From NCBI RefSeq assembly GCF_058153355.1, contig NZ_CM177019.1: 64,000 nt of DNA; one strand, written 5' to 3'. The position numbers and the translations under genes are program-made. Below, in pieces: positions 9,163 through 31,328 of the stretch; position 1 is the first letter of the stretch; each line of letters starts with the position of its first letter. The notes beneath the pieces were generated by a model. The model was given only the letters and a program-made list of their open reading frames with translations, searched no databases and had not been told where the DNA came from.

Positions 9163-9208
9163 AAGACTGCTAAAATGGTTTTTTGCCTCATCAACACCTG
9201 AAGGCCTC

Positions 9209-9679: not shown

Positions 9680-9686
9680 GACGGGT

Positions 9687-9718
9687 ATGGCGGCCATGCG
9701 AAGAACATGGCCGCCGAC
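9687..9718. terminator. Bidirectional hairpin between convergent yehS and yehR
   Basis: Stem atggcggccatg / catggccgccga with loop cgaagaa. Confidence 0.5.
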
Positions 9719-9721
9719 AGA

Positions 9722-10183
9722 TTATTTCACTTCTTTAAAACCAGCGGCTTTCATCACCAGTTCCATTTGCGCCATAGTGATACCTTTTTTGGCATCTTCA
9801 GCAGAAACGTTGATACCTGAAATACCCTGCAGGGCTTTAAAATCAACTTTTTCCATATCGATAGTCACGTTTTCCTGAGCATAAGTATCGGTAAAGGTTA
9901 ATTTTTCTTCAACGCCAGGGATGTTTTTATATTTGGCACTTAACGGCTCAAGTGTCTTGGCAGCATCTTCTTTGGTGGTTGCACCAATGGAAGCAAATTG
10001 AATTTTGGTTTCAGAAGATTGCTTAAGAACCTTGTCACCTTTGTAGACATAGGTAATAGCAATTTCAGTACCGTTCAGATTAGCGCTAAATTTCTTCGAT
10101 TCTTCTTTGTCACCGCAGCCAGCAAGAGAGAAAACCAGAACAGATGCAACAACAAGGGAAAACAGCTTATTGAAAGCCTTCAT
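9722..10183 (-). CDS. yehR: Lipoprotein YehR (DUF1307)
   Basis: 153 aa from MKAFNKLFSLVVASVLVFSLAGC; lipobox LAGC. Confidence 0.85.
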   Translation of the reverse strand: MKAFNKLFSLVVASVLVFSLAGCGDKEESKKFSANLNGTEIAITYVYKGDKVLKQSSETKIQFASIGATTKEDAAKTLEPLSAKYKNIPGVEEKLTFTDTYAQENVTIDMEKVDFKALQGISGINVSAEDAKKGITMAQMELVMKAAGFKEVK

Positions 10184-10314
10184 GTAAAACTCCATTTTAT
10201 TTAATCAAGGAACTGGTGACCACACCAGGGGCCATATAGGATATGCCTAATACCTTGGCGTGAGCAGTCCGGAACTGGAGTAGAACTCTTTGTAAAAAGC
10301 ACTATTTGTCCTTG

Positions 10315-13439: not shown

Positions 13440-15711
13440 GGAAAACTCCCCAGTGTTGCAGTGATGCCAGTGCCTGCTGTTCGAGTTGTTGATGATGTGC
13501 AATGGCTTGCGGTGGACAATGCAACGGCATTTGCAGCGCTGAAACGGGAAGCTGTGCGAGCTGGTAATGCTCAAGCACCTGATGCGCCAGCGTCCCGCGT
13601 TCTCGTGGTGGTAGCCAGGCCATCGCCGCGCGTAAATCGGGCAGGGCGTTAATAAAATCGTCGTCACTCAGTTGATTTAAATGACTACTGAAACCGGCGA
13701 TAAATGCCGGCTGACAGGCCAGTTGATGGCGGGCCAGCGCCAGCAAACCGTGCAGCGCCTCGCCAGATTGTGCCGGGGATAATTGTGCCAGCATCGTCAG
13801 CGCCGCTTCGGCACTGGCGTTGGGATGTTCCAGACGCATCAGCGCGCCAAGGGCCGCACCGCGATCCAGCGCTGGGGCATGAATCGCCTGACTGCGACGT
13901 TCCAGTAAGGCTACCGCCGCAGAAAGCGAAACGCCGGGTAAATTAACGCCGCTATTTAGATCGCGCAGGATATGGCAAAGCGCCTGCCAGCTATGCAGGT
14001 GAGCGTGAAACTCCTTCTCATCCGGCCTGCCGTTGGATTCACATAGCCACAGTGTGCGATCGATAGCCGCGTATAACGTCGTCTGTAATATCTGCGCGCC
14101 TTGCATACCGCTGATTTCATCGAGCTGCCACAAGGCGTAAAGCACTTCCAGCGCCTGGCCCATTTCGGCAAACTGATTTTCCTTGGCGATTAATAATGTG
14201 AGTTGTTCCAGTAATTGCTGACTGAAGGACGCCAGACCCGCTAACGCGGCCTGGCTAAGACATGTGGTGATGCCGCTGATTCCACCCGCGTCCAGCATAT
14301 CGGCTTCTAATTTATTGCGTGCGGCCTCCTGGAGTGTGGCACCAAAGCAGGCGGCTTCAATCAATGCCGCATGTTGGCTAAGTGGCTGGGTTAATGTCCA
14401 GCGTTCTTCACCGTTGCCCGCCAGCGTCAGTGTACTTCCTTGCTCGCGCACAATGCCGGGAATCTCCAGTATTACCAACTGATGTAGCACCTGACTTTGC
14501 GCCAGTCCATCGGGGGTAAAGCGATTTAAGGTAAGCTCCGCCGGAAGAGAGATTCCGGTACGTTCCAGTTCGTAGGTGACATCTTTTGGCAGAGGTGGCT
14601 GTGGCGTCGAGGGGGCAAGTTTACCGAATCCGTCACCTGCTAATGTGTCTATCAACGTTACCAGTATCGGATCGGTATCGGGATGAATAACGTCGCGATA
14701 GCTCCACGGCAACGGCGCATTCAAGGCTTCTTTAATCAGCGAGCCTGCTATGGCATCCAGCCAGTCAGTGCGTAACGGTAGTGTATGACCGCGCAACTGT
14801 GCCAGCGCCATCGCATGTAAATGAGCGGCAGCCATATCCGCGGTTGAAGCAGGCAATTTGTGCTGGCGCAAACGGGTAAGAACCGTTTTTAGTAGTTGTT
14901 CACCTGCCTGCTGCAAGCCCCACCGCCAGCACCAGTTTTGCCAGACCGGGGCAGGCATTCCTGAAAGGTATCCTGCCAGCACATCAAGGCGCTTTTCACT
15001 GTATGGCGTGAGATAGCAACCTGTAACGGCATCATCCTGTGAGAGCAATTCTGGCTTGTTAATTTCTTGCGGGCATTCGCGCCACATTTTTGCCAGTGCC
15101 GGAGCGTGCCAGCCTCCGCAGACGACTAATACGTCGCCATTATTTTGCTGCATCGCCCATGCAATCCAGCGGGCCATAAAGGCTTCGCGCTGACGATTGA
15201 GTGCATCGCCGGAGGCGTCGCCCCGCAGTTGTGCAAAATAGTGCGCCAGTGCAGAGGGTAATATAGTTTGCTGGCTTTCATCTTCGAACAAGTGATCCCA
15301 CAAGGTGTCGCTGTTATCCATGCGGGTGGCACGCAGCAGAAAGGCCTGGCTTTCCTCTTGCATATCAGGCGAATCATCCTCTTCTTCACTTTGTGCCCAG
15401 CAAGGCAAATCGATGAAGTAAGTTTGTGCCTGAATACGACGTGCGGCTTGTAGCGCCTGCCACTCCGGCGAAAATTCAGCAAATGGCGTCCAGGCACCAC
15501 GCCCGGGGGCCGCACCGTCCTGATACTGGCAATAACTGTAAATAGCTACCGGAAGCTGGTGGGCTAACAACAGTTCGTCTACCCGGTCATTAAAATCAGC
15601 CGGGCCTTCAATCAACACGTATCGTGGCCGCTGGCTTTCGATTAACGATTTCACCAGCCGGGCGCAGGCCGGACTATGATGCCGGATGCCGACAATTAAC
15701 GGCTCGCTCAT
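13432..15711 (-). CDS. yehM: Large uncharacterized protein YehM
   Basis: 759 aa from MSEPLIVGIRHH; 8-bp overlap with yehP start; no motif I recognise. Confidence 0.8.
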   Translation of the reverse strand: MSEPLIVGIRHHSPACARLVKSLIESQRPRYVLIEGPADFNDRVDELLLAHQLPVAIYSYCQYQDGAAPGRGAWTPFAEFSPEWQALQAARRIQAQTYFIDLPCWAQSEEEDDSPDMQEESQAFLLRATRMDNSDTLWDHLFEDESQQTILPSALAHYFAQLRGDASGDALNRQREAFMARWIAWAMQQNNGDVLVVCGGWHAPALAKMWRECPQEINKPELLSQDDAVTGCYLTPYSEKRLDVLAGYLSGMPAPVWQNWCWRWGLQQAGEQLLKTVLTRLRQHKLPASTADMAAAHLHAMALAQLRGHTLPLRTDWLDAIAGSLIKEALNAPLPWSYRDVIHPDTDPILVTLIDTLAGDGFGKLAPSTPQPPLPKDVTYELERTGISLPAELTLNRFTPDGLAQSQVLHQLVILEIPGIVREQGSTLTLAGNGEERWTLTQPLSQHAALIEAACFGATLQEAARNKLEADMLDAGGISGITTCLSQAALAGLASFSQQLLEQLTLLIAKENQFAEMGQALEVLYALWQLDEISGMQGAQILQTTLYAAIDRTLWLCESNGRPDEKEFHAHLHSWQALCHILRDLNSGVNLPGVSLSAAVALLERRSQAIHAPALDRGAALGALMRLEHPNASAEAALTMLAQLSPAQSGEALHGLLALARHQLACQPAFIAGFSSHLNQLSDDDFINALPDLRAAMAWLPPRERGTLAHQVLEHYQLAQLPVSALQMPLHCPPQAIAHHQQLEQQALASLQHWGVFHV

Positions 15712-15721
15712 GCATCTTTCC

Positions 15722-16810
15722 TCACGGCAGGCGGTGGCGAGCTTGATAATAAGCCTGCCAGTGAGCTTCTTTATGTGTAGCGACACGTTGTTCGAAGTAA
15801 CGGCGCAGACGTGCGCGATCTTCTTCGTTATCTTTGACGATGGTTCCGGCAATACAGTCCACCAGGTCGGCTGGCTCCCCCGCGCGATTCGCTAAAAACC
15901 AGGCGCGGACGCCCACGGCGTGGGCCACGTTAACGGCTTCAGCGGTGGACATAATCGCTGTAAGGGTATCCATTGACGTTTTCTTTTCGCCGTTGGCACG
16001 CAGATCGCGGAAGGTGCGTACCAGTAACTCAAGTACCGCGTCAGGCACTTTATGCGGAATACCGCTATGGGCCAACAAACGCGCCGAAGCACTGGCGACC
16101 AGTTCCAGCTCCTGGGCGAAATCCATAATCGGAAAAACCGTTTCAAAATCGAATCGGCGTTTTAGTGCCGCGCTCATTTCATTAACGCCGCGATCGCGGG
16201 TATTGGCGGTGACAATAATATTAAAGCCTTCCCGCGCATAGAGCTGACTGGCTTCACCAGTGAGTTCCGGCACCGTCATAACCCTGTCAGAAAGCATACC
16301 TAACAGACAGTCTTGTACTTCCAGTGGTGTACGCGTTATCTCTTCAAAACGGACAATTTTGCCGTCGCGCATTCCCTGGTAGAGCGGGGCAGGGACCAGC
16401 GCTTCCGTTGACGGACCATGATTAATAAGCAGGGCGTAGTTCCAGCCGTACTTGATTTGATCTTCGGTGGTAGATGCGCCGCCCTGGATAGTTAACCCAG
16501 CATCGCCGCTAATAGCGGTTGCCAGTAATTCAGACAGGAGAGATTTTGCGGTGCCAGGTTCCCCCACCAACATCAAACCGCGCCCGGTAGCAAGAGTGAC
16601 TAACATGCGTTCGACAGCGGAGGGACTAATCACGACTTTACGGCTGATATTTTGCGCGCTATCGCCAAGAATAAAAGAACGGGCCGCAGGCAAACTTAAC
16701 TGCCAACCGGGCGGGCAAGGTGCGTTATCATTTTGCTTTAATTTTGCCAGTTCATCGGCGTATAACACAGCGGCAGGCGGACGCTGCAGATGATTATTCT
16801 GCGGTGACAT
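15722..16810 (-). CDS. yehL: MoxR-type AAA+ ATPase YehL
   Basis: 362 aa; Walker A GEPGTAKS; first gene of the yehLMPQ array. Confidence 0.85.
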   Translation of the reverse strand: MSPQNNHLQRPPAAVLYADELAKLKQNDNAPCPPGWQLSLPAARSFILGDSAQNISRKVVISPSAVERMLVTLATGRGLMLVGEPGTAKSLLSELLATAISGDAGLTIQGGASTTEDQIKYGWNYALLINHGPSTEALVPAPLYQGMRDGKIVRFEEITRTPLEVQDCLLGMLSDRVMTVPELTGEASQLYAREGFNIIVTANTRDRGVNEMSAALKRRFDFETVFPIMDFAQELELVASASARLLAHSGIPHKVPDAVLELLVRTFRDLRANGEKKTSMDTLTAIMSTAEAVNVAHAVGVRAWFLANRAGEPADLVDCIAGTIVKDNEEDRARLRRYFEQRVATHKEAHWQAYYQARHRLP

Positions 16811-16921
16811 ATATTCATCCCTGAAATGTATTAATCAAATAAACGATATTTTACGCGCAATAAATGTTTGGCGCATTAGTTGTTTGAGCGGAAAATATCT
16901 GGAAAGCAGATCACAGTAAAT

Positions 16922-17002
16922 AAAAAAACCTGCTGGTGAGGCAGGTTCTTTTATTTACTACTTTGACGATAACTTGCTGATTGTGCAACATTTCGTACCA
17001 AC
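16922..17002 (-). ncRNA. orzO: Candidate antisense sRNA antitoxin (OrzO-like), about 80 nt
   Basis: Minus-strand TTGCAA-N17-TATAAT promoter (-10 at 17009..17014), 5' 18 nt complementary to the zorO leader, intrinsic terminator hairpin ~16929..16947 plus T-run. Confidence 0.55.
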
Positions 17003-17240: not shown

Positions 17241-17330
17241 ATGGACACGCTGACACAAAAGTCAACCGTGCTCATTGCCGTACTGGAGTTATTAGTGGCT
17301 CTGTTGCGGTTGATTGATTTGTTGAAGTAA
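17241..17330 (+). CDS. zorO: Small hydrophobic type I toxin (29 aa, MDTLTQKSTVLIAVLELLVALLRLIDLLK), ZorO-like
   Basis: Below the ORF-track cutoff; AAGGAGA Shine-Dalgarno held inside palindrome gcgctccttaataaggagagcg; ~175-nt leader; terminator follows. Confidence 0.6.
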   Translation: MDTLTQKSTVLIAVLELLVALLRLIDLLK

Positions 17331-17764: not shown

Positions 17765-20700
17765 TTAATGGAAAATGACGTCAGGTGCGCTTAACGCTTC
17801 ACTCAAATCAAACGTATCGAGTTCGGCAAAAGTGACAGATTTATTGTCACGGTACACTCGAAGAGAACGGAAGCTCATTAGCGCTTTGCTATCAGCACTG
17901 TAGTGGTTAAAACCGGGTGAAAACTTAAGGACCAGCCGATACTCGCCCAGGTCATAGACACATGCGTCCTCAAAACCTGACTCCCAGCCTTTGTATCGCA
18001 TTCCCATAAGTTGCCCAACGGTTGCGGATTTACCTTCCCAGCGAGTCAGGCTGTTACTGGCTGACTCGTCAGGTGTGAGCAGCACTGTGCGCCGCATCAA
18101 CTGGCGAAAAGGCGGCATAATTTCGTAATCGGCAAAAACCTGTGCAAATTCACTGCGCATTTCTGCTGTCATTTCTAACGGGTGGGCAATGCCAATCAGA
18201 GCATCCGCAGGCAGGTCAATTGGCTCATCTTGTGCGTTGCAGAACTCCCCCTCAGCGGCCACGCGAAAGGCGTTGAGTAAACGACGCGGTTCATTTGCCG
18301 GATAAACCGCCCATATTAATCGCTGAGTAACCAGGCGAGTAAAGGGATGATTAACAAACAGAGAATGAAAATCTGCCAGCGACCAGCGTCGGGTGGTGCG
18401 TAGGGCAGTTTCAAGACGCGGGAGCAGGTTTTTGCTCACCTGAGTGGCATCTTTTTTTAGCCCTTTTAGTCGGGCCAGTGCCTCGGGTGCTTTCAGCTGA
18501 TCGTCATCGGCGCGCAACCGGGGAACACTTTTCTGGCGAACGTTTTGCTGATCAAAGATAACCGGGTTGAGGTTTTCATCGAAGCGAACGGTAAACTGCC
18601 GGGGTCCAAAATCAAATATCAACGCCTGCGGATCATCCAGGCCCAGTGTTGGGACTAATCTGTCCGCTAACTCTTCCTGGCTTAGTCCACGATTTTCTGC
18701 GACCACCTGAAGAAATTCCGCCGCGTTATCACGTAAGGGACGGGATTTCGCCCGTTGCGATATATGATGCAGCTGTATCAGCGCCATATCATTATTCATC
18801 AGGGTAAGTATGTTCAGGCCACTGACGGCGCGGGCAGATTTGCCTTCCTGTGGCCAGGCGAGGATCTGTGTTGTCAGATCCCGAGCCGTGCTTTCGTCAC
18901 CAAAGAGACTTAACGCCAAAAAAGCCCAGTTGTCTTTTGCGGGGGCGCCAGCCTGTTGCCAGGCGGTGAAGAGATCCCAGGCAAAAGCGGCCAGCGTTTG
19001 TGGCTGGCAGAACGTTTTCAGTTGTTCCAGCCCACAATAAAAACGTCCGCCCTGGGTAAAGCGCAGCATTTCGCCGATAATTTCCAGAGCATCATCAGTA
19101 ACATGTTGATTATTCGTGATAATTCTCGGTCTGGACCACATTGTCGGATGCCAGAAATCAGGGGCTTTGGGAATGCGTGCCGGGTAAATGTCCATTGGAC
19201 CCTGTTTAAGTAATTGCTCCAGGGCAGGCCATACATCTGTATGCTGCCAGCGGTTTGCCACGGTTTGCAGTAATTCGCCATGCCCTTGTTCATACAGTAA
19301 ACGCAGAGCGCTGAGTGCCGCTTCGCTGTTATCGCCAGACCTGGCAAAGATTAATGGGATCAGCGCCGTAGCCGTATGCTCCGGCCATTGTAAAATCCAC
19401 TGGCGAGCCAGATTACGCTGGCCCGCAAAACGATGCCAGACGCGGGCAACGGGCAGCGCCAGTTCTGTTGCGCCAAAATGAATCAGCAGCGGAAATATCT
19501 CTTTGGGATGTCGGGCAAAGGCGGTGATTAATCCGGGCAAAGCATCGGTACCCAGGACACTTAACAGATATTCTACCCCGGTGTAATGAAAATCAGCCGC
19601 GACAATTTGTTGCCAGCACGATACCGCCATTTCGCGCGGCATTTGCGCGATAAGATACAGGTTCCATACTCCCCAACGCTTTTCATCAGTGTAATTAAAT
19701 TTGCGTTGGAAAGTTCGCCACCCCTCCATCAACGCAACACTATCTTGTGCCAGTAATGCGCTGGCGGCCTCTTCCCGGTAGTGTTTATTTTCATTCTGTT
19801 TTGCCTGATAATTGAGCAATCTTCCTACTGAAGTATGTGTCTCTAGTTGATCGGTATCCAGAGCATCCAATTGTCCTTTGAGAATAAACTCATTAAACTT
19901 CCACCTGTGATCTTCAAAACCTAATTCCCGCAAGAAGGTATCCGCCCCTCTGTTAGCAAGACGTTCGTCAAAAGACATGGCGCTAAAATGGTCAATTGCA
20001 GTTTGCTGTTCCGGCGTCCAGTGTTTATTCGGCGACCTGTACGCTTGCGGTACAAGCGTAAGTTCAGGTAGCGAAAAGTGAGTTATGGAAGCCTTTTTCC
20101 TGCCACGCCACGGTGGTGAAACGAGGATTTCAGGCAGACTACTGTTATCGGTGCTATCAATAACCGGTTTTGGCGAAGCCGATAAATAACTATTCACCAC
20201 TGCCCGGGCTTGAGTACTTAACGACGGGATCACCTCTTCTGCCAGTTGTGGCTGCGATGCCATCAGCGTTTGTAACAGCGTACGCCAGTATTCATCACGT
20301 GCTTTTTGCTGTGCAGGCAGCTTTTTGTCTTCGATGATAGGATAACCAGGGCGCGTAGGGGGGGCTTTTAACGCCAGTAGTTCTGCCAGTGCGGCGAGCG
20401 TCGCATGGGGAAAGTTTTTACTGTATTTAGCCACACGCTGCAGGCTGGGTTTGTTTTTATCGGCAACTAACAGCAAGATGCGAATAACTTGCGGATGGTT
20501 AATTTGTACCAGCAGGCTACCGCAATCTTCTTTATGGGCATACATCGCGAGGCGTGGAACGGCTGCAATTCCTTGTTCGCGCAAAAGGGCGGCGCAGGCC
20601 GCGTAGCCGAAGTGGTTTTCATGCGACATGTAGCTGGCTTCGCGATCGCTAAATATATCCTGGCTCCAGTAGCGTTCGAGTTTTCTCACCGCTCTGGGGT

Positions 20701-21421
20701 CATTAGCAACAACTTTTAACCACTCCTTAGAATGAAAATGAGTCCGCGGGCATTCAAGGCCTACCAACTCATTGGCGATTTCTGGTTTCTCCGGGAGGAT
20801 GAGTGCAATAAAAGGACGGCGAACTTGGGGTAGTCCTGGCAGTGCGGCAATGAGTTTGTCGGCGCAACGCTGCCAGCAGCTTTCCTCTGCCAGAGAGAGA
20901 GGCTTACGCAGTCGGAGATCGAATTCGTTATAGGTTTCTGAGCGATAACCATAACCATAGCCATAGTCCTCCTTCTGATACTGCAATGTTACTACCAGAG
21001 GATCGTTCTCATAACACCGCGCAATAAACTGGCGTGCAATCACCACCTCAGTCGCATATTCCAGCCCCTCTTGTTGGACGATTTCGTCGAGCAACTGTTG
21101 GCTGTCATTTTGCGCGATACAGGCTAGCGCCGCCATTGTCCGGGCCGGAATTGAGGGTTTGTGCTCGCCGATCAAGTTGATGGCTTGCGTAATGGCCGAC
21201 TGCCACTCCAGTGAAAAATTTTCATAACGCCAGACAATGTTTTTTTTCTTCTCAGCAATGTGTAGCAATTTATCACCCAGTGTCTGGATGAGGCTTTCAG
21301 TGATAACAGGCACCGGTTCGCCCGGCCAATTGCGATGGCTGAGTGGTGTTTTGCCTTTTTTATATTTCAGTTCCAGTTGGGCGTTATCCGCCAGCCACGG
21401 TAATTCCTTGTCCATGCTCAT
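17765..21421 (-). CDS. yehI: Large DUF4132 protein YehI (no WGR domain)
   Basis: 1218 aa; C-terminal ~500 aa homologous to the two upstream paralogs. Confidence 0.85.
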   Translation of the reverse strand: MSMDKELPWLADNAQLELKYKKGKTPLSHRNWPGEPVPVITESLIQTLGDKLLHIAEKKKNIVWRYENFSLEWQSAITQAINLIGEHKPSIPARTMAALACIAQNDSQQLLDEIVQQEGLEYATEVVIARQFIARCYENDPLVVTLQYQKEDYGYGYGYRSETYNEFDLRLRKPLSLAEESCWQRCADKLIAALPGLPQVRRPFIALILPEKPEIANELVGLECPRTHFHSKEWLKVVANDPRAVRKLERYWSQDIFSDREASYMSHENHFGYAACAALLREQGIAAVPRLAMYAHKEDCGSLLVQINHPQVIRILLLVADKNKPSLQRVAKYSKNFPHATLAALAELLALKAPPTRPGYPIIEDKKLPAQQKARDEYWRTLLQTLMASQPQLAEEVIPSLSTQARAVVNSYLSASPKPVIDSTDNSSLPEILVSPPWRGRKKASITHFSLPELTLVPQAYRSPNKHWTPEQQTAIDHFSAMSFDERLANRGADTFLRELGFEDHRWKFNEFILKGQLDALDTDQLETHTSVGRLLNYQAKQNENKHYREEAASALLAQDSVALMEGWRTFQRKFNYTDEKRWGVWNLYLIAQMPREMAVSCWQQIVAADFHYTGVEYLLSVLGTDALPGLITAFARHPKEIFPLLIHFGATELALPVARVWHRFAGQRNLARQWILQWPEHTATALIPLIFARSGDNSEAALSALRLLYEQGHGELLQTVANRWQHTDVWPALEQLLKQGPMDIYPARIPKAPDFWHPTMWSRPRIITNNQHVTDDALEIIGEMLRFTQGGRFYCGLEQLKTFCQPQTLAAFAWDLFTAWQQAGAPAKDNWAFLALSLFGDESTARDLTTQILAWPQEGKSARAVSGLNILTLMNNDMALIQLHHISQRAKSRPLRDNAAEFLQVVAENRGLSQEELADRLVPTLGLDDPQALIFDFGPRQFTVRFDENLNPVIFDQQNVRQKSVPRLRADDDQLKAPEALARLKGLKKDATQVSKNLLPRLETALRTTRRWSLADFHSLFVNHPFTRLVTQRLIWAVYPANEPRRLLNAFRVAAEGEFCNAQDEPIDLPADALIGIAHPLEMTAEMRSEFAQVFADYEIMPPFRQLMRRTVLLTPDESASNSLTRWEGKSATVGQLMGMRYKGWESGFEDACVYDLGEYRLVLKFSPGFNHYSADSKALMSFRSLRVYRDNKSVTFAELDTFDLSEALSAPDVIFH

Positions 21422-21424
21422 TCC

Positions 21425-24400
21425 TTATTCAAACAGGGCTTCGATGTCGTTAATTAACTCGCTAGCGGTGATGTCATCGAGTGCGGAGAACTGCGCTTCC
21501 TGTGTTGAATTAATCCCCCAGCCATAGCTTTCTGCTTTGCCTTCCCATAGCCACAGCTTGCTTAAGAGTTGCTCGGCACTGAGTTCGGCTGGCGACATAC
21601 CAACTGCAAATCCTTCATCGATTTCCATGATTAATGACCAGCGGCCCAGAGGTTTGATCATCCAGCCGATCCAGCCACCGTCCTGCGGTTCACCACGCAT
21701 CCAGCCTTTATTCGCCAGCCCCATTACCCGACCGCTCGGGCATTTTCTGCCTGCCCAGCGGGTCAATTCGCTGGCATTGCGCTCGGTTTCTGTCAGGGCG
21801 TAACTGTTACGGTCGAGCTGGCGGAACGGCGGTAGCAGTTCGTAGTCGGCAAAAAGCTGACCAAAGGCGGCAGCATCCGTGGGTGATATTTCCAGAACGT
21901 GAGGAATGCCAACAGAGATATCGCCTTCCGGCAGGGTGAAAAGATCATCGTCAGCGGTGCTGTAGCTGTTATCTTCCGCCACACGGAAGCACGCCAGTAA
22001 CTGGTTGTCTGCGCTATAAATGCCCCAAATCAGACGGCGGGTTAAGTGGCAGACCAGCGGATGCTCAACCAGAAAGAGCTGAAAGTTTTCTGGCGACCAG
22101 CGGCGGCGCAGGCACATGGCGGATTCCAGCCTTGCCACCTGCTGGGCGGCAACGGTACGCGCATCTTTTTTCAGCAGTTTGTAGCGGTTAACTGCATCGT
22201 TCGCTTGAGTTTCATCATCGCTTTTGTTCGGTTTAGGCAAGTCTTTCAGGCGGCTGCCGGAAGCATCACGCACAAACGGTTTTAAGGTTTCATCAAAGCT
22301 GACGGTGAACTGCCGTGGCCCGAAATCCAGCAGCAGCGAACCGTTATCATCCAGACCGAGATCCGGTGCTAACCGGTCTTCAAGCTCCGCCACCGTGAGT
22401 TCGCGGCTCTCGGCAATGTCGGCAATTTTTTCTTTTGCCCGCTCCTGTAATGCTTTGAATTTCAGTTTCTGGGCGATGCCGTTAAGCTGCATCAGGGCGA
22501 TATCACTACCGATAGCAGCGAGAATATCCAGCCCGACGGTGGCGCGTTTATGCTGGGATTCACCAGGCCAGGCGCGAATCAAAGGCGTCAGTTTGCGGGC
22601 GGTATCATCGTTGCCGAGAACACCTAACGCAGTGAACGCCCAGCTTTCTTTCGACGGTGCGCCAGCGGTCTGCCAGGCGGTAAACAGATCCCAGGCAAAT
22701 TCAGCCAGTGAGTCGGCGGTACAGGCATCTTTCACCTGCAATAACCCCGCATACAGAGCCTCTTCCTGAGGGAAGCGGAGCATTTCACCGAGGTGGAGGA
22801 GGGCGTTATCTGGCAGTGATTGGGCGTTTGCTTTTAATACCGGGCGTGTCCAGAGCGATGGCTGATAAAAGGCCGGAAGTGTCGGGATTTTAGTCGGGTG
22901 ATTATCTAAGGGATCGAGCGCAAGTAGAGCGTTCACCGCATCGGTTACTTCCGGCTGGTTATAACGCTGGGCGATTTCTTGCAGTAATGACGGATAACCA
23001 CTTTCAATCAACATACGTAAGGCGGCGCGGGCGTTATCCTGGGCTTCACCAGCTTTGCCGAGTGCCGCAGGCAACAGGCCGATAATGGCATGTTCCGGAT
23101 ATTTCAGCAGCCAGGTGCGGGCGTCTTGTCGTAGAGTTTTGAGTTTGTTAAAGGCGCGGGCGACGGCAGGAGCCAGTTCCGTTGCGGCAAAATAATTAGC
23201 AACCGCAAAACCTTCTTGAGGGTAGCGTGAAAACGAGTGTAGAAAACCACTCATACCTGCCAGTCGCAAATAAAGCATGACAGGTTTTACCGCGGTATGC
23301 GGCTCTTTGCTGAGAAACTCCCATAGTTTAATCGCTGTTTGCATAGGTAAAAAGGGAAGTGAGTTGAGATGCCACTCCCCCTGATACGGTGCATGGTGGG
23401 CTTTAAACATTTGGATGAGTGTAGCGAAGTCCTCACGTTCCCATGCGTCAATTGCCGAGTCAGAAGCGCCGATATATTTATATGTGTCAAAATCCCAGCG
23501 GCGATACCCCAGCGAGTAAAGGAAATCTTTAGCACCTTCACCTGGCTTATGCGATTCCCAGTCCCAATGAGTTTGAAACTCTTTTGCTTCTGTGTCGGTT
23601 ATTGTGCATATGGATTTGAGTTTGAGCGGTGCTAAATCCAACACCGGAATCGTCGATTTTTTCTTTTTCGAAAGCCAGGGAGGTAAGACTAATACGGCTG
23701 GCAGTAGAGCGGCGCAGGCATGGTTTGACGGTTGTATCAGTTGTTGCTGGCATGATTTCAGCACTTCAACTGCGGCTGTCGAGAGCCAGGGAGTGACCTG
23801 TTCTGCCAGTGCCGGTTGCGAGATAAGCATCGTCATTAGCATAATGCGCCAAGTATTCTCTTCTTTTTGCGCAAGAAGTTCCGCCAGTGCCGCCAGTGCT
23901 GCGTGTGGGAACGCAGCGCAAGCTTTCGTCATCCGATCGTGACAGCGTTTAGTTTGCCCGGCTACACGTATGAGCAGTGTTAATGCGAACGGATGATTGA
24001 TATGACGCAATACATCTGCGCAGTAGTCACTTGCGGCATAGGGAGCAAATCTGGGCAGGGCTGCAACACCTTGCTCCTGTAATACGGTGGCTGACAATAT
24101 CGCACCACAATAGTAATCATCAAAAATGGCATATGGCTCGTGATATTTTTCTAATGAGGCAAGAATGTGCTCATCAGTCGCCACTATTTTTAGCCACTCA
24201 AGCGAGGGTAATTTTTTTTTCCCCAGTAGACGCTGGGCAATTTCATGTGCAATTTCTGGTTTTTCGGGTAATAACAAAGCAATTAATGGTTGCCGCCATT
24301 CTGGAATATGTGGAATTGCGGCAATAAGTTTTTGTGCACATTTTTGCCAGAGAGACTCTTCCGCCAGTGATAAATGTTTCCGTAGGCGTAATTCAAAACT

Positions 24401-25213
24401 GGAATATTGCTGCAGGTTATCAGGTGCAATACCAGACGGCAGAATAATAATGGTATTATTCGCATAATCCCATTCAATATCAATCTGTTGAAGATGTATT
24501 ACTACATCAGTAGCATATTCCAGGCCACCTTCCTGAACGAGCTGATCCATAACATCCTCACGCTCTTTATATCTCGTGCACTTCAGTTCAAGTGCCGTGA
24601 GTACAGCCATTACTGGTGATGGTAACTGTGTTGTTTTCAGGCAGTCGATCTGACTGAGCGCCTGGGAGATGGCGTTTTGCCATTCTAAAGAACAGGCGCT
24701 GAAGTCAAATGTGGCTGTTTTATTATCCCGTTGCAACACGCTACAGGCTAAGCGGCGTAACTGGGTCAATTCGTCTGCTTGCTGAACAGGAACTCCGGGA
24801 AAGCGGCGATGGCTTAACGTGGTGTGTACAACTTCGGGCGGAAAAACGACAGCAATATCTTTCGCCAGCCACGGTAAAACATCATCTGTATTTTTGTCAG
24901 CCACACGGGCTTCTGCTACGCAAAAGGGTTGTTCCTGAATAATGGTGGATAAGGCCGCTACCTTGAGAGAATCCGTTACCGTTTGGGAAGGTTGCAAAGA
25001 ATTATCCTTCGCTTGCCCCACATACCCCTTCTTCACCTTCTCCGCAATCAGCCTCAGTTCCGCTTTTTCCGCCGCCGCAGCATCAGCAAAGCTTTTTACC
25101 TGGCTTTGCCCGTTGGTACTGACTTTGCCCCAACTAATATGCAGCTCGTTTCCCTGTTGCTCCACTGCCCAGAATTTATGTGATTTTTCGTCCTGATAAA
25201 TATAGGTTTTCAT
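21425..25213 (-). CDS. WGR domain + DUF4132 protein, MolR-family paralog (middle copy)
   Basis: 1262 aa; N-terminal WGR signature KFWAVEQQGNELHISWGKVSTNGQ; stop 3 bp from the yehI start. Confidence 0.8.
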   Translation of the reverse strand: MKTYIYQDEKSHKFWAVEQQGNELHISWGKVSTNGQSQVKSFADAAAAEKAELRLIAEKVKKGYVGQAKDNSLQPSQTVTDSLKVAALSTIIQEQPFCVAEARVADKNTDDVLPWLAKDIAVVFPPEVVHTTLSHRRFPGVPVQQADELTQLRRLACSVLQRDNKTATFDFSACSLEWQNAISQALSQIDCLKTTQLPSPVMAVLTALELKCTRYKEREDVMDQLVQEGGLEYATDVVIHLQQIDIEWDYANNTIIILPSGIAPDNLQQYSSFELRLRKHLSLAEESLWQKCAQKLIAAIPHIPEWRQPLIALLLPEKPEIAHEIAQRLLGKKKLPSLEWLKIVATDEHILASLEKYHEPYAIFDDYYCGAILSATVLQEQGVAALPRFAPYAASDYCADVLRHINHPFALTLLIRVAGQTKRCHDRMTKACAAFPHAALAALAELLAQKEENTWRIMLMTMLISQPALAEQVTPWLSTAAVEVLKSCQQQLIQPSNHACAALLPAVLVLPPWLSKKKKSTIPVLDLAPLKLKSICTITDTEAKEFQTHWDWESHKPGEGAKDFLYSLGYRRWDFDTYKYIGASDSAIDAWEREDFATLIQMFKAHHAPYQGEWHLNSLPFLPMQTAIKLWEFLSKEPHTAVKPVMLYLRLAGMSGFLHSFSRYPQEGFAVANYFAATELAPAVARAFNKLKTLRQDARTWLLKYPEHAIIGLLPAALGKAGEAQDNARAALRMLIESGYPSLLQEIAQRYNQPEVTDAVNALLALDPLDNHPTKIPTLPAFYQPSLWTRPVLKANAQSLPDNALLHLGEMLRFPQEEALYAGLLQVKDACTADSLAEFAWDLFTAWQTAGAPSKESWAFTALGVLGNDDTARKLTPLIRAWPGESQHKRATVGLDILAAIGSDIALMQLNGIAQKLKFKALQERAKEKIADIAESRELTVAELEDRLAPDLGLDDNGSLLLDFGPRQFTVSFDETLKPFVRDASGSRLKDLPKPNKSDDETQANDAVNRYKLLKKDARTVAAQQVARLESAMCLRRRWSPENFQLFLVEHPLVCHLTRRLIWGIYSADNQLLACFRVAEDNSYSTADDDLFTLPEGDISVGIPHVLEISPTDAAAFGQLFADYELLPPFRQLDRNSYALTETERNASELTRWAGRKCPSGRVMGLANKGWMRGEPQDGGWIGWMIKPLGRWSLIMEIDEGFAVGMSPAELSAEQLLSKLWLWEGKAESYGWGINSTQEAQFSALDDITASELINDIEALFE

Positions 25214-25225
25214 TGCTAATTCCTT

Positions 25226-28200
25226 TTAATTAAACAGTGATTCAATGTCGTTAATCAGCTCGCTGGCGGTGATGTCGTCGAGTACGGAGAAAGTGGGTGA
25301 GGATTGCTTACCATAGCGATCATAAGGGGCGATGATTTTTACGCTTTCGACAGGCAGCAGGTCGCTATACCCCGTTTCGCCATAAATTAATGAAAAAGGT
25401 TCTGTTTCAAGTTCGAGAGCGCCATAAGGGGTAGATTTGCGCATCGCATAGACGCTGCCGCTTTCTTCCAGACGTTGCCAGCCTCTGCGTTCCAGCCCGA
25501 CAATGCGTCCGGCCTGGCAGAGACGTCCGTTCCAGCGTGACAATTCATGGACATTACGTTCGTTATCAGCAAGGTGGTAACTACCACGTTCGAGCTGTTG
25601 GAAGGGGGGAAGCAGTTCGTAATCAGCGTAAATTTGCCTGAATGCAGCGACAGATTCAGGGGGGATTTCCAGCATATGCGGAATACCGATGTTTCCTGCT
25701 GGTAGCGTGAATAGCTCATCCTGCATATCGCTGTAAGTGCTGTCTTCTGCGACCCGGAAGCAGGCAATCAGCGTGTTTTCCTCAGTATATACTCCCCATA
25801 ACAGCCGTCGGGTTAAGTGACGTACCAGCGGATGCTCCACCAGAAACAGGCGGAACTGTTCTGCCGTCCAGCGTCTGCGCTGGCACATAGCCTGCTCCAG
25901 ACGATCAATCTGCTGACTGGCAATGGCGCGCACATCTTTCTTCAATTGTTTGAAGAGGTTAACGGCGTCAGTTGCCAGTGTTTTATCATCGCTCTGATTT
26001 GGTTTGGGTAAATCTTTCAGGACTTTGCCGTTTGCATCGCGCACTACAGGTTTTAAGGTTTCGTCAAAACCAACGGTGAATTGACGTGGGCCGAAATCCA
26101 GTATCAGCGAGCCACTGCTATCAAGCCCTAAATCTGGAGCCAGGCGGTCTTCCAGTTCAGCCATTGTCAGTCCGCGATTTTCGGCGACCATATTGATTTT
26201 GTCGCGGGCGTGTTCCTGCAATGCTTTGAATTTAATTTTTTGTGCAATGCCATTAAGCAGCATCAGCGCAATATCGCTACCGATACTGGCTAACACATCC
26301 AGCCCAGAAACCGCACGTTTATGCTGGGATTCACCCGGCCAGACCCGGATAAGCGGGGTTAGTTTACGCGCGGTGTCGTCATTGCCTAAAATCCCCAGCG
26401 AGGTAAATGCCCAGTTTTCTTTTGCGGGCGCGCCAGATTCCATCCATGCCGTGTAGAGATCCCAGCCAAAGTCAGCCAGTGATTCCCGGGTGAAGGTCTC
26501 TTTGATGATCGCCAGCCCAGCGTAGGAGGTAATGTCGCGTGGAAAGCTCAATATTGTGCCCAGGTGGCGCATAGCGTCATCGGGCAGAGGCAGGTTGTTA
26601 CTTTTAAGCCGTGGTCTGCGCCATAAGGTGAACTGATAAAAGCCGGGCAGTGGGGCGATTTTTGCAGGATATTCTTCCAGTGGATCGCTATCGAACAATG
26701 TTGCCAGCGCAGCTAAAACATCAGGTTGATTATATCCCCGGGCGATTTCCTCAATCGTTTCTCGCTGGTTTAAATTCACCAGCAGGCGAAGCGCCTGGCG
26801 GGCACAATCACGATCTTTTCCTTTTTTGCCCAGGGCCACAGGAAGTAGCCCGGCGGCGGCATGGTGTGGGAAGTTAGCCAGCCATTTTCGGGCATCTTCA
26901 TAAGACATTTTTTTCTGTAATCGCTGCGCCATCGGTAATGCTAATTCGCTGACGCCCAGGAAAAGGGTGAATATCCACAACTGTTGTGGCTTACGTTGCA
27001 GACATTTCATAAACGCAGGAATGGCCGCATCACCAAAAATCGCCAGAATTTCTCTCTCGCCGGAGAATTGCTCTTCATTAATTATTTGATTGAGAAAAGA
27101 AATAGCATGCTGAGTGGGTAGGAAGCAGAGCGCGTACAACTGCCAGTGTCTGCTTCCTTTATTATGGTATTGCGCAAACTCTGCTTTCAGCGCGGGGAAA
27201 TCGAAACGTAACAGGGCCTCAACTGCGCTTTGTGGCATTATTTTTTTTTCGTATTGTTCTTCTCCGGTTCTGCTCCATTCCTTAAACCCCAGTCGCCAAA
27301 GGATTTGCTGTTCTGGCGTTAAAGGGATGAAAGACGTTTCCCAGCTTTCCTTTTCAATTAGTGGCAGATCGGTAAATAAGGTTTGCTGTGATGCCTGATA
27401 TTTCGCGATTTCACTGAATCTGGATATGTCAGTGTGACTGATTAACTCTGTAATTCCAGGTGTGATGTCAGTGACGGAAGGGATGGGAAGTACCGGTAAA
27501 TCAAATACGGGTATTACATTCTTTTTCTTATTTATTGCCCACGGTGGAGCGACAAGCAGTTCTGGCAACATATTCGCAGTGGCATACTCACATTCTTTAG
27601 CTACTGACTGAGGACGACATTCAGATAAGATGCCTGCCGCTTTAGCATTAACCCAGGGAATGACGTCGCGTACTAACTCTGGCGTGACGGTAACCAGTTT
27701 GACAAGCGCGTTGCGCCACTGTGCATCTTCATGTATTGCCAGCAAAGTAGCATAAGCGGCAATAGCCGCAGCGGGATGTTTTTGGCAGGCTTTGCTTAAG
27801 TATTCCAGGTGCTTTTTCTTGCCATTTACACCGAGGATCAGAATTTGAATCGCATCCGGGTGATTCGTTTTCCATAGCCATTTGACAAGATCTTCAGTCT
27901 CGCTGATGCGCTCGAAGAGATAAGTGGGATTGTCAGAATGCTCTTCCGTAAACTCAGTAAGTATCCGGCTTACACCGCGCCCCCCATTATTTGCCAGCAA
28001 CATTGCCAGATAAGCGCGAAAATCACGATACAACGGTGGGAAGTCGTATTTTTCTGCTGTAGTCAGAGCTATATCATCGGTTACTACCACTCTTAACCAG
28101 GTTATCGCCGGAACGTTTTGGTCTGCATAGCGTAGAGCCATAGCATTGGCAATATCCGGGCGTTCAGGGAGCAGTAACGCGGCAAAAGGTTGCCGTGCTG

Positions 28201-29023
28201 GGGATAGCGTCGGAATAGCAGTAAGCACTTTATCCACACAGCGTTGCCACTCATCTTCTGAAGCGAGTGAAAGATGATGACATAGACGTTGATGCCAACT
28301 CGGTAGCGATTCTGCTTCGTGATTAGGTGGAATGATGGTGGTTACTGCGCCTTTTACTGGTTTATATTTGAGTTGAAGAGCGAGAAGGGCGATTTCAACG
28401 GCACTTTCCAGACCACAGCGAATGACTAAGTCATCGACCAGTTCATCTTGAGAGTAAGAGTTCCAAAAGCCCCAGAGCAATGCCGCATCAGATTGCGCAC
28501 TCCCTGTCTGTTTATTACCCAGAATTCGCATTTGTACCTCAGCAAAAGCCTGCTGCCAGTTTTCTGGATAAGAACGGTAATTGTTGTCGGGGTCATATGC
28601 CCTGGTGTTATTCGCGATGCGCTTCCATATTTGACCATCTTTGTGCAGATAATTGATATCTCTGGGGCGAGAGCGATGTGGAAAAGCAAATCGGTTAATA
28701 TCGTCGGTTAGCGGAATGACTGCATCATCAGCCAGCCATGGGCGTTTGTTTTTACTCTCGGGTGAAGTTTTAACGTCAGGAGTGACTTTGGTGACGGGGG
28801 ATATATGCACGTTTGCCGAAGCGTCTTCCACATAGCCTTTTTTCGTTTTCTCTGCGATAAGCTTCAGTTCCGCTTTTTCCGCTGCTGCAGCATCAGCAAA
28901 ATTTTTTACCTGGCTTTGCCCTTGGGTACCAACTTTTCCCCAACTGATATGCAAATCGTTACCTTGCTGCTCCACCGCCCAGAATTTATGCGATTTTTCG
29001 TCCTGAAAGATAAAGTGTCTCAT
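25226..29023 (-). CDS. molR: WGR domain + DUF4132 protein, MolR-family paralog (metG-proximal copy)
   Basis: 1265 aa; near-identical N-terminal WGR module; 12-bp gap to the middle paralog; sits where K-12 has molR. Confidence 0.75.
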   Translation of the reverse strand: MRHFIFQDEKSHKFWAVEQQGNDLHISWGKVGTQGQSQVKNFADAAAAEKAELKLIAEKTKKGYVEDASANVHISPVTKVTPDVKTSPESKNKRPWLADDAVIPLTDDINRFAFPHRSRPRDINYLHKDGQIWKRIANNTRAYDPDNNYRSYPENWQQAFAEVQMRILGNKQTGSAQSDAALLWGFWNSYSQDELVDDLVIRCGLESAVEIALLALQLKYKPVKGAVTTIIPPNHEAESLPSWHQRLCHHLSLASEDEWQRCVDKVLTAIPTLSPARQPFAALLLPERPDIANAMALRYADQNVPAITWLRVVVTDDIALTTAEKYDFPPLYRDFRAYLAMLLANNGGRGVSRILTEFTEEHSDNPTYLFERISETEDLVKWLWKTNHPDAIQILILGVNGKKKHLEYLSKACQKHPAAAIAAYATLLAIHEDAQWRNALVKLVTVTPELVRDVIPWVNAKAAGILSECRPQSVAKECEYATANMLPELLVAPPWAINKKKNVIPVFDLPVLPIPSVTDITPGITELISHTDISRFSEIAKYQASQQTLFTDLPLIEKESWETSFIPLTPEQQILWRLGFKEWSRTGEEQYEKKIMPQSAVEALLRFDFPALKAEFAQYHNKGSRHWQLYALCFLPTQHAISFLNQIINEEQFSGEREILAIFGDAAIPAFMKCLQRKPQQLWIFTLFLGVSELALPMAQRLQKKMSYEDARKWLANFPHHAAAGLLPVALGKKGKDRDCARQALRLLVNLNQRETIEEIARGYNQPDVLAALATLFDSDPLEEYPAKIAPLPGFYQFTLWRRPRLKSNNLPLPDDAMRHLGTILSFPRDITSYAGLAIIKETFTRESLADFGWDLYTAWMESGAPAKENWAFTSLGILGNDDTARKLTPLIRVWPGESQHKRAVSGLDVLASIGSDIALMLLNGIAQKIKFKALQEHARDKINMVAENRGLTMAELEDRLAPDLGLDSSGSLILDFGPRQFTVGFDETLKPVVRDANGKVLKDLPKPNQSDDKTLATDAVNLFKQLKKDVRAIASQQIDRLEQAMCQRRRWTAEQFRLFLVEHPLVRHLTRRLLWGVYTEENTLIACFRVAEDSTYSDMQDELFTLPAGNIGIPHMLEIPPESVAAFRQIYADYELLPPFQQLERGSYHLADNERNVHELSRWNGRLCQAGRIVGLERRGWQRLEESGSVYAMRKSTPYGALELETEPFSLIYGETGYSDLLPVESVKIIAPYDRYGKQSSPTFSVLDDITASELINDIESLFN

Positions 29024-29122
29024 TCTGCATCCCTGTAATTTTATCCAGTTGAATGCAGATGCTACCAGTATTTATGCGGGTTAGAGAGAGACAAAATCGC
29101 AAGAAAACAACTTTAGGAATTT

Positions 29123-29156
29123 ATAAAGAAAAGGCGCTGTCGATACAGCGCCTTGA
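29123..29156 (-). terminator. metG intrinsic terminator
   Basis: Minus-strand hairpin aaggcgctgt-atcg-acagcgcctt followed by a T-rich run. Confidence 0.6.
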
Positions 29157-29163
29157 AAGGAGA

Positions 29164-31197
29164 TTATTTCACCTGATGACCCGGTTTAGCACCGGCATCC
29201 GGGCTTAGCAGGAAAATATCTTTCCCGCCAGGACCGGCAGCCATCACCATGCCTTCAGAGATACCGAAGCGCATTTTACGTGGTGCCAGGTTAGCCACCA
29301 TAATGGTGTGACGACCAATCAGTGCCTGCGGATCCGGGTAGGCAGAACGAATGCCGGAGAAGACATTGCGTTTTTCACCGCCGAGATCCAGCGTCAGGCG
29401 CAGCAGTTTGTCAGAACCTTCAACAAACTCTGCGTTTTCGATCAACGCCACGCGCAGGTCAACTTTGGCGAAGTCGTCAAAGGTGATGGTTTCCTGAATC
29501 GGATCATCTGCCAGCGGGCCAGTAACTGGTGCGGCAGTGGCTTTCACTTCTTCTTTAGATGCTTCCACCAGTGCTTCAACCTGCTTCATGTCAATACGGT
29601 TATACAGTGCTTTGAACGGATTCACTTTATGGCCCAGCAGCGGTTGCTGGATACCATCCCAGGTCAGTTCCGTATTCAGGAATGCTTCCGCTCGTTCAGT
29701 CAGTTTCGGCAGTACCGGTTTCAGGTAGGTCATCAGCACGCGGAACAGGTTAATGCCCATCGAGCAAATCGCCTGCAGATCGGCATCGCGACCTTCCTGC
29801 TTCGCCACCACCCACGGAGCCTGTTCATCGACATAGCGGTTAGCCAGATCAGCCAGCGCCATAATTTCGCGCACTGCTTTACCAAATTCGCGGCTTTCCC
29901 ATGCTTCACCAATCACTTCAGCGGCATCCGTGAAGGTTTTGTACAACTGCGGGTCAGCCAGTTCGCTTGCCAACACGCCGTCAAAACGCTTGTTGATAAA
30001 GCCCGCGTTACGGGATGCCAGGTTTACAACCTTATTAACGATATCGGCATTCACGCGCTGGACGAAATCCTCGAGATTGAGATCGATATCATCAATGCGC
30101 GAAGAGAGTTTCGCAGTGTAGTAGTAACGCAGGCTGTCAGCGTCAAAATGATTCAGCCAGGTGCTGGCTTTAATAAAGGTGCCGCGAGACTTGGACATCT
30201 TCGCGCCGTTCACCGTTACATAGCCGTGAACAAACAGGTTGGTCGGCTTGCGGAAGTTGCTACCTTCCAACATGGCAGGCCAGAACAGGCTGTGGAAGTA
30301 AACAATATCTTTACCGATGAAGTGGTACAGCTCGGCGGTGGAGTCTTTCTTCCAGTATTCATCGAAGCTTACGCTGTCGCCGCGCTTGTCACACAGATTC
30401 TTGAAAGAACCCATGTAGCCAATCGGTGCGTCCAGCCAGACGTAGAAATATTTGCCCGGCGCGTTCGGAATTTCAAAACCGAAGTACGGTGCATCGCGGG
30501 AGATATCCCATTGTTGCAGGCCAGATTCAAACCACTCCTGCATTTTGTTTGCCACCTGCTCCTGCAACGCACCGCTGCGGGTCCATGCCTGCAGCATTTC
30601 GCTGAAAGAGGGCAGATCAAAGAAGAAGTGTTCAGAATCACGCATTACCGGGGTAGCGCCAGAAACCACCGATTTCGGCTCGATCAATTCAGTCGGGCTA
30701 TATGTTGCGCCGCAGACTTCACAGTTATCGCCGTATTGATCCGGTGATTTACATTTCGGGCAGGTGCCTTTCACAAAACGGTCCGGCAGGAACATGCCTT
30801 TTTCCGGATCGTACAGTTGAGAGATGGTGCGGTTTTTAATAAAACCGTTTTCCTTCAGGCGAGTATAGATAAGTTCTGACAACTGGCGGTTCTCTTCGCT
30901 GTGCGTCGAGTGATAGTTGTCATAGCTGATGTTAAAGCCTGCAAAATCAGTCTGATGTTCCTGACTCATTTCGCCAATCATCTGCTCCGGAGTGATACCA
31001 AGCTGCTGAGCTTTCAGCATGATCGGTGTACCGTGGGCATCGTCGGCGCAGATGAAGTTGACCTCGTGGCCGCGCATTCGCTGGTAACGGACCCAGACAT
31101 CAGCCTGGATGTGCTCCAGCATATGGCCGAGGTGGATTGAGCCGTTAGCGTACGGCAGTGCGCACGTCACCAGAATTTTCTTCGCGACTTGAGTCAT
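29164..31197 (-). CDS. metG: Methionyl-tRNA synthetase
   Basis: 677 aa from [25 protein letters not shown]; HIGH-type and KMSKS motifs present. Confidence 0.95.
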
Positions 31198-31328
31198 AGT
31201 AGGCATTACTTCTTAATAGTGAAAAGGGGTTAGATAGTACCAAATGGGAAAATGTTAAGTAAGTACTTCTCTATATTCTTCAGGTAAACTATCAGCTGAT
31301 GGTTTATCTATACAAAAAAGGAGTCGGG

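Follow-up and report, generated by a model that had tools for sequence, protein, structure and literature searches.

The metG–yehI interval and its counterpart in K-12

The window, a 64,000-nucleotide (nt) stretch of contig NZ_CM177019.1 (NCBI RefSeq assembly GCF_058153355.1), carries between metG and yehI two tandem genes on the same strand, here termed A and B, giving the order metG–A–B–yehI with gaps of 12 nt between A and B and of 3 nt between B and yehI (Table 1). Both encode proteins of the WGR+DUF4132 family, recognised by scores above the Pfam cut-offs for both domains: A has WGR at amino acids (aa) 5-69 (67.1 bits) and DUF4132 at aa 999-1182 (173.3 bits), and the same domains of B score 55.8 and 174.1 bits, respectively. 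The product of yehI (gene C) has DUF4132 only and is 32-37% identical to the A and B proteins. The original prediction, made from the DNA sequence, had placed two WGR paralogs with similar blocks in direct orientation here, and these are present, with A and B together filling exactly the span that it named. In Escherichia coli K-12, the interval instead holds yehF (b2115; 825 nt) and the pseudogene yehH (b4499), formerly molR_1-3 and described as a 'molybdate metabolism regulator', which together amount to one WGR-type unit. The single gene of K-12 is a chimera of A and B: the upstream spacer and nt 1-15 are of A type, and the sequence from nt 168 to the end is of B type.

A chimeric gene in single-copy strains

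Two alignments of K-12 to the window, an Escherichia sequence the flanking genes of which are 92-96% identical to those of K-12, delimit the chimera. The first (95.7% identity) takes in metG, the metG-A spacer, and nt 1-197 of A. The second covers B from its first base to its end at 92-93% and is colinear except for one stretch that does not align (23249-23628). Together, these place the chimeric junction within the 5' WGR block, that is, within a conserved block as had been anticipated.

K-12 and seven other single-copy strains were also aligned base by base with the A and B alleles of nine further two-gene genomes. All eight single-copy genes start with the A upstream sequence and with the first codons of A (MRHFIY), and every B starts with MKTYIY. 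Over nt 1-15, all eight alleles are 100% identical to the E. coli A alleles and 66.7% identical to every B allele, and they carry the A-specific bases, synonymous as well as non-synonymous, at nt 5, 7, 8, 11, and 15. Over nt 168-215, they are 95.8-97.9% identical to B of the window and at most 73% identical to any A; for K-12, these values are 97.9% and at most 71%. The intervening nt 16-160 are nearly equidistant from both parents (~88% to A and ~87% to B). A switch from A to B inside nt 16-167 was detected in 8 of 8 alleles (max-chi-square p = 1e-4 to 1.4e-2). For the K-12 type, each of three distinct pairs of parents puts the breakpoint at nt 159/161-168 (max-chi-square, permutation p = 1e-4 to 2e-3); for strain MS21199, it falls at nt 110/135-153. 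It should be noted that the parents were picked after inspection of the data and that the exact breakpoint, which depends on the parent alleles, is therefore soft.

If no recombination had taken place, the K-12 gene would be a plain B ortholog with an A-like start, and the similarity between A and B would reflect purifying selection on WGR and DUF4132. The 3' third of the genes, where high protein identity is combined with near-saturated synonymous sites, fits such an explanation. However, the single-copy genes share with A a non-coding spacer in addition to the A-specific states at nt 5 to 15, A alleles are no closer to one another than to B over nt 16-167, and the segment missing from single-copy strains is exactly one repeat unit. 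An origin by selection and descent only is thus considered highly improbable.

Probable loss of one repeat unit and its direction

The stop codon of metG and the start of yehI are 7754 nt apart in strain RIVM_C019217, which has three genes, versus 3944 nt apart in single-copy strains with an intact gene. This 3810-nt difference equals the spacing between the starts of A and B, as an in-register crossover between the 5' blocks would produce. Unequal recombination that deletes or fuses one copy, with molR of K-12 as a product, had been proposed for this locus, and the data bear this out in that an A/B fusion is seen and one repeat unit is gone. In our judgment, it is probable that recombination in the 5' WGR block deleted one unit to create an A/B fusion and that the fusion gene was later inactivated by point lesions in K-12. 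In-register homologous recombination between the 5' direct repeats would remove exactly one 3810-nt unit and would leave a gene with the promoter region, ribosome-binding site, and first ~160 nt of A, continued by B from about nt 168. The pathway may be of the RecA type, either intrachromosomal or by unequal sister exchange.

Fusion genes formed by unequal recombination between tandem paralogs are known from the delta-beta globin of hemoglobin Lepore and from red/green opsin arrays, and exchange between tufA and tufB and deletions mediated by rrn or Rhs elements are bacterial parallels. The locus resembles Lepore-type fusions in that parental tandem direct repeats persist in relatives, the product joins the 5' part of the upstream gene to the 3' part of the downstream gene, the junction lies in homology, and one unit is lost. 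It differs in that the homology between A and B is confined to ~150 nt (83-93% identity) within genes whose proteins are otherwise 44% identical, and in that the fusion is found at a frequency of ~68% in the species beside the parental array.

A scan for outgroups matched five loci, with Escherichia fergusonii, Escherichia marmotae, and Escherichia ruysiae not among them. Escherichia whittamii has an A-B-C array, Escherichia sp. E1V33 has metG-A-B-C, and Escherichia albertii has metG-A up to the end of the contig. Given these three outgroups, the three-gene array appears to have come first in Escherichia, with the single gene most likely derived from it by deletion. The reverse, in which the single gene is ancestral and A was inserted later, for instance by horizontal import or when a circular segment with the A body integrated through the 5' block, draws on the formal reversibility of the reaction, on the interleaving of three-gene and single-gene strains in the metG tree, and on Erwinia rhapontici, where one B-like gene lies directly upstream of yehLMPQ and so adjoins yehL. 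The Erwinia gene stands in a different context, however, and informs only a much older state. Moreover, A shares 44% of its residues with B and is thus no recent duplicate of it, a donor A-B array would have to pre-exist somewhere to furnish the inserted segment, and A adjoins metG in E. whittamii, E1V33, E. albertii, and 30% of E. coli. Insertion of A is therefore regarded as improbable, and deletion as the direction to be preferred.

Table 1. Positions in the window of the genes, similarity blocks, and variable stretches discussed in the text
Feature	Position	Strand	Remark
Gene A, metG-proximal WGR+DUF4132 paralog	25226..29023	(-)	Open reading frame of 1265 aa; no counterpart of the body in K-12
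Gene B, second WGR+DUF4132 paralog	21425..25213	(-)	Open reading frame of 1262 aa; ortholog of the K-12 yehF/yehH (molR) body
Gene C (yehI), third paralog	17765..21421	(-)	1218 aa; DUF4132, without WGR
metG	29164-31206		Upstream of gene A
metG-A spacer	29024..29163	(-)	metG terminator hairpin at 29131-29154; spacer inherited by the K-12-type fusion gene
5' similarity block, A copy	28828..29023	(-)	Gene nt 1-196; 196 nt, 83.2% versus B copy
5' similarity block, B copy	25018..25213	(-)	Gene nt 1-196
Crossover zone in B	25047..25198	(-)	Gene nt 16-167; A counterpart 28857-29008
K-12-type junction	B 25047-25054, A 28857-28864	(-)	Gene nt 160-167
Unit absent from K-12-type genomes	25047..28856	(-)	3810 nt: A nt 168 to end, 12-nt spacer, B nt 1-167
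3'-third similarity, B copy	21755..22732	(-)	Includes DUF4132; counterpart in A 25532-26503; 70.5% over 972 nt
Last 66 nt of B	21425..21490	(-)	84.8% identity with the final 66 nt of A (25226-25291)
Hypervariable stretch 1 of B	24134..24973	(-)	aa ~81-360; lowest pairwise protein identity 18-55% among 9 alleles
Hypervariable stretch 2 of B	23189..23659	(-)	aa ~519-675; contains the stretch not aligning between K-12 and the window (23249-23628)

Similarity and exchange between A and B

Direct repeats between A and B, identified with a repeat finder and BLAST, form families D1-D4 at a spacing of 3771-3810. The 5' block aligns in register with a BLAST E value of 8e-55 and a longest exact run of 19 nt, and the identity between the two genes of the window is 86.8% over nt 16-167. 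The best stretch of the 3' third has a longest exact run of 20 nt, and over their full length the genes share 55.5% DNA identity. The identities of the blocks far exceed chance, a shuffled control giving 40.7% over forced-aligned columns with 709 gap columns. The original prediction had described blocks that were near-identical, with the WGR-coding 5' ends at about 90% and the 3' thirds at about 80% DNA identity. The 5' block is real, but the coordinates given for it were 12 nt off register, and the identity there is 86.2% over 138 nt; for the 3' thirds, the measured value at the positions given was 65.1%. None of the blocks (83.2% at the 5' end, 65-70% in the 3' third, and 84.8% over the last 66 nt) can be called near-identical.

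A codon-wise comparison of A and B distinguishes the two kinds of similarity. At synonymous third positions, the identity is 0.70 in codons 1-40 and ~0.45 elsewhere; in the 3' third (codons 798-1155), it ranges from 0.30 to 0.59 (0.43-0.59 within the best-matching stretch, 21755..22732) while protein identity is 53-88%. This combination of low synonymous with high protein identity indicates that the 3' third has stayed similar through constraint on the proteins of two old paralogs; signs of recent homogenisation at the DNA level are confined to the 5' block.

The comparison of alleles, comprising 90 A-by-B pairs, gives a similar picture. Over nt 16-167, the identity among A alleles is 87.8% and that between A and B alleles is 88.1%, and A and B alleles are intermixed in a neighbor-joining tree of this stretch, which rests on just 152 nt; this is the pattern of gene conversion or concerted evolution. 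No such pattern was found in the 3' third, with identities of 90.8% among A alleles, 93.6% among B alleles, and 70.0% between A and B (range 68.6-71.2), and no A/B chimeras were found there among the 90 pairs. The 3' third, which had also been proposed as a repeat for recombination, was consequently rejected as a substrate, given that its identity is 70%, that no exact run exceeds 20 nt, that synonymous sites are saturated, and that the 90 pairs include no chimera. The ~150 nt of WGR-coding sequence at gene nt 16-167 would thus be the sole part of A and B that still swaps sequence, and the similarity of the 3' third, as protein-level conservation, would have no role in the deletion.

Efficient RecA-dependent recombination in E. 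coli requires perfectly matched stretches of ~23-27 bp and is suppressed by mismatch repair when the sequences have diverged. The longest exact runs between A and B are 31-41 nt in E. coli three-gene strains versus 19-20 nt in the window, which makes the A/B pair of the window a poor RecA substrate.

The complete genome closest to the window is that of strain EC42405, with which metG is 97.2% identical, B is 99.5% identical, and A is just 90.2% identical. Similarity between the two is a mosaic across 17765-31206, with yehK, yehL, and yehM at 98% and yehI at 95.4% beside the values for B, metG, and A. Gene A of EC42405 starts in a B-like manner (MKSYIY). The mosaic and this B-like start suggest a recent exchange of the A segment.

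Distribution in E. coli and the number of deletions

Counts for the species were obtained by applying megablast coverage thresholds to 5426 complete E. coli genomes. The body of A is present in 1643 of these (~30%) and that of B in 5388. The fusion junction, consisting of the A spacer, the A start, and the B body, is present in 3673 (~68%), indicating that the fusion is the majority state and is not peculiar to K-12. An 'A-only' class of fusion was considered and rejected because the boundary from A to B was found in 1629 genomes, the same count as that of full-length A (1629). The fusion gene is intact in most strains; it is an open reading frame of 1262-1264 aa in each of the seven other strains examined.

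A tree of the adjacent metG does not separate three-gene from fusion strains, which are interleaved in it, and the 5' blocks of the fusion genes each adjoin a different A allele in the nt 16-167 tree. Together with the varied breakpoints, this interleaving fits either repeated deletions or a single deletion followed by allelic recombination. In the latter case, one ancient deletion would have made all fusions, and the two body classes and four kinds of 5' block found among them would stem from later allelic recombination. Every fusion allele does switch within nt 16-167 and is of B type by nt 168, and all carry one class of post-WGR linker that was observed among three-gene genomes only in the window and EC42405, as expected of a common origin. 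Arguing against a common origin, the 5' blocks of the fusions are polyphyletic: that of K-12 pairs with A of IAI39 and RIVM_C019217, that of MS21199 with A of S2 (96.6%), that of KY177 with A of O157, and that of CU39ES-1 with A of E. whittamii. Further, the breakpoints of the K-12 type (nt 159-168) and of MS21199 (nt 110/135-153) differ, and both arrangements occur within one metG clade. A single deletion is a real possibility, if somewhat short of an even chance.

Several points weigh against an origin of the single gene by deletion within the 5' block, or limit how precisely it can be described. First, nt 16-160 of the fusion genes are equidistant from A and B, such that the exact breakpoint varies with the choice of parents. 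Second, ~20 loci were read base by base, and the population counts rest on coverage thresholds. Third, the direction of the change rests on three outgroup genomes, one of which ends at a contig end, and on the window. Fourth, the genome of the window is, to judge from an exact match of 19-20 nt and a divergence of 13-17%, not itself poised to delete. Finally, we infer the direction (deletion rather than insertion), the number of events, and the recombination pathway, including its dependence on RecA, from the comparison of extant sequences.

Inactivation of the fusion gene in K-12

Compared to the intact fusion gene of strain 19SZHZ869Rt, that of K-12 differs by eight substitutions and one indel. 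Of these, T824G converts codon 275 from TTA to TGA, which is the end of yehF, and the insertion of one G at nt 2846 results in a frameshift. An additional private change, T43A (W15R; K-12 locus position 4517, yehF nt 43), alters a tryptophan of the WGR domain that is kept in all 29 other aligned A, B, and fusion sequences. The 61-mer that spans the stop codon in K-12 has exact matches in 706 genomes, and the one that spans the inserted G in 352, as compared to 3673 with the fusion junction. From these counts, the lesions seem to have arisen after the fusion, in particular lineages and one nested within the other, with the nonsense mutation at codon 275 probably having come first and the +1 frameshift at nt 2846 second, in an otherwise intact fusion gene.

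The original prediction also held that the fragmentation of molR in K-12 could be a product of fusion rather than of simple point mutation. This part did not hold, in that fragmentation is due to later simple lesions, T824G and the +1 G, relative to a near-identical intact allele. That the split into yehF and yehH might itself be a recombination scar is favoured by the chimeric nature of the K-12 gene, but the junction is located at about nt 160-167, distant from the lesions (nt 824 and 2846), the frame is intact (1262-1264 aa) in strains that share this junction, and the lesions are found in far fewer genomes (706 and 352) than the junction (3673). A recombination scar is accordingly scarcely conceivable. 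Relative to this K-12 locus, B of the window is orthologous from nt ~168 in the same metG-yehI interval (92-93% DNA identity), and the window differs in having an additional full-length A upstream and in that both of its genes are intact, as opposed to a fusion with a nonsense mutation, a frameshift, and W15R.

Neighboring genes and decay of the region

Downstream of yehI, the window encodes yehK, yehL (AAA_5/MoxR), yehM (DUF5682), yehP (VWA_CoxE), and yehQ (SWIM). The region from metG to yehQ decays often in E. coli through IS1 insertions, deletions, stop codons, and frameshifts. IS1 insertions and deletions were observed in IAI39, SY3626, and TUM1881, and stop codons or frameshifts in A and B of O157, B of IAI39 and EcPF15, yehI of 19SZHZ869Rt, yehM of O157 and DETEC-P1056, and yehK of CU39ES-1 and S2. 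In sequence type 131, the region is also a hotspot for transposon insertion, and sublineage L1a of this type carries transposon TnMB1860 there (PMC9334617).

The spacer between yehK and yehL in the window contains a single ZorO/OrzO type I toxin-antitoxin pair (16922-16995, minus strand, and 17241-17330, plus strand), with a match to the Rfam OrzO-P model (90.6 bits) and an open reading frame of 29 aa, MDTLTQKSTVLIAVLELLVALLRLIDLLK. This system is known in O157 and is not present in K-12 (PMC2887945). At the other end of the region, a full-length copy of metG, 94.2% identical to that of the window, is annotated on NZ_CP019354.1 of strain XH988, a record of 107,661 nt that is presumably a plasmid; in the search that returned it, 223 of 8574 matched places were on plasmids.

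Family, structure, and hypervariable cassettes

The WGR+DUF4132 family (PF05406 + PF13569) has 5993 representatives at E<=1e-3. Similar neighborhoods, with AAA_5/MoxR, DUF5682, VWA_CoxE, and SWIM proteins, occur in Erwinia and at two distant metagenomic/genomic loci. In these distant relatives, a WGR-DUF4132 gene lies within the AAA_5-DUF5682-VWA operon or such genes flank it on both sides (loci L024, 1-12804, and L026, 2926-11474). A and B are like other members of the family in matching both Pfam models in full and in their neighborhood, and the Escherichia locus is unlike others in having three tandem copies. At one distant locus, two WGR-DUF4132 paralogs flank an AAA_5-DUF5682-VWA_CoxE operon, and a multi-copy state is thus not peculiar to Escherichia. 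A, B, and yehI would be old tandem paralogs built from an N-terminal WGR domain (in A and B), alpha-helical repeats, and a C-terminal DUF4132 module, and their products probably belong with a conserved module comprising the MoxR-type ATPase YehL, the DUF5682 protein YehM, the VWA protein YehP, and the SWIM protein YehQ.

The B protein was modelled in two halves. The model of the N-terminal 720 aa (predicted local distance difference test score, pLDDT, of 75.7) comprises WGR and an alpha-solenoid, each followed by a disordered linker; the AlphaFold2 model of the C-terminal module (aa >675) has a pLDDT of 95.5, and this module is 82-99% identical across alleles. No regulator-like match was obtained for the modelled parts (WGR, helical repeats, and alpha/beta module), the fold searches returning just generic HEAT/PUF/importin-like repeats, and a sequence search of the PDB matched the WGR domain alone (2ra8). 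PADLOC-DB v2, which holds models of anti-phage defence systems, contains no match for A, B, C, yehK, yehL, yehM, yehP, or yehQ. In the library searched, no paper dealt with the A/B fusion or with the function of these genes (DUF4132, yehI/yehL/molR, and the WGR/MoxR module), and the fusion event is apparently previously undescribed.

Two stretches of B are hypervariable, the least similar allele pairs sharing 18-55% protein identity within them, and A (about 26900-27500) and yehI (about 19300-20200) have cassettes of this kind at equivalent positions. Classes of cassette alleles share 50-74% DNA identity (35-60% protein identity in B), with 90% or more in the flanking sequences. The cassettes assort independently: B of IAI39 and of RIVM_C019217 are 99.3-100% identical over nt 1-1500 and 54-71% identical over nt 1500-2100. 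One class is common to E. coli O157 and Escherichia sp. E1V33 (85-95%). A short class of B, without the second cassette, encodes 1010 aa in Escherichia sp. E1V33 (locus 13814-16843), and the O157 copy of this class is frameshifted (locus 7459-10444). An origin of the B cassettes as copies of A or yehI by paralog conversion was ruled out, as they are less like A and C than like other B alleles.

One function that could be envisaged for A, B, and yehI, put forward here as a doubtful conjecture, is that of interchangeable sensor or adaptor subunits of a conflict or surveillance system formed around the MoxR ATPase and the VWA, DUF5682, and SWIM proteins. In such a system, the C-terminal docking module could be kept while cassette classes that differ by 40-65% in protein, and that extend across species, are shuffled by recombination.

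Implications

Although the deletion mechanism itself is textbook, its recognition at this locus explains a long-standing oddity in the annotation of K-12, namely yehF and the yehH pseudogene, formerly molR. The difference between strains with one and with two genes in the metG-yehI interval would reflect a unit-length recombinational deletion that makes a hybrid and not a gain of foreign DNA. In pangenome and ortholog tables, the K-12-type gene should be counted as an A/B hybrid, as it will otherwise be assigned inconsistently to either paralog. More broadly, the locus is a pointer to a widespread and uncharacterised WGR-DUF4132/MoxR/VWA module that evolves unusually fast in defined cassettes. 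If the products of A, B, and yehI do act as sensors or adaptors, the A/B fusion and the frequent pseudogenes would represent changes in repertoire under fluctuating selection and not neutral decay.

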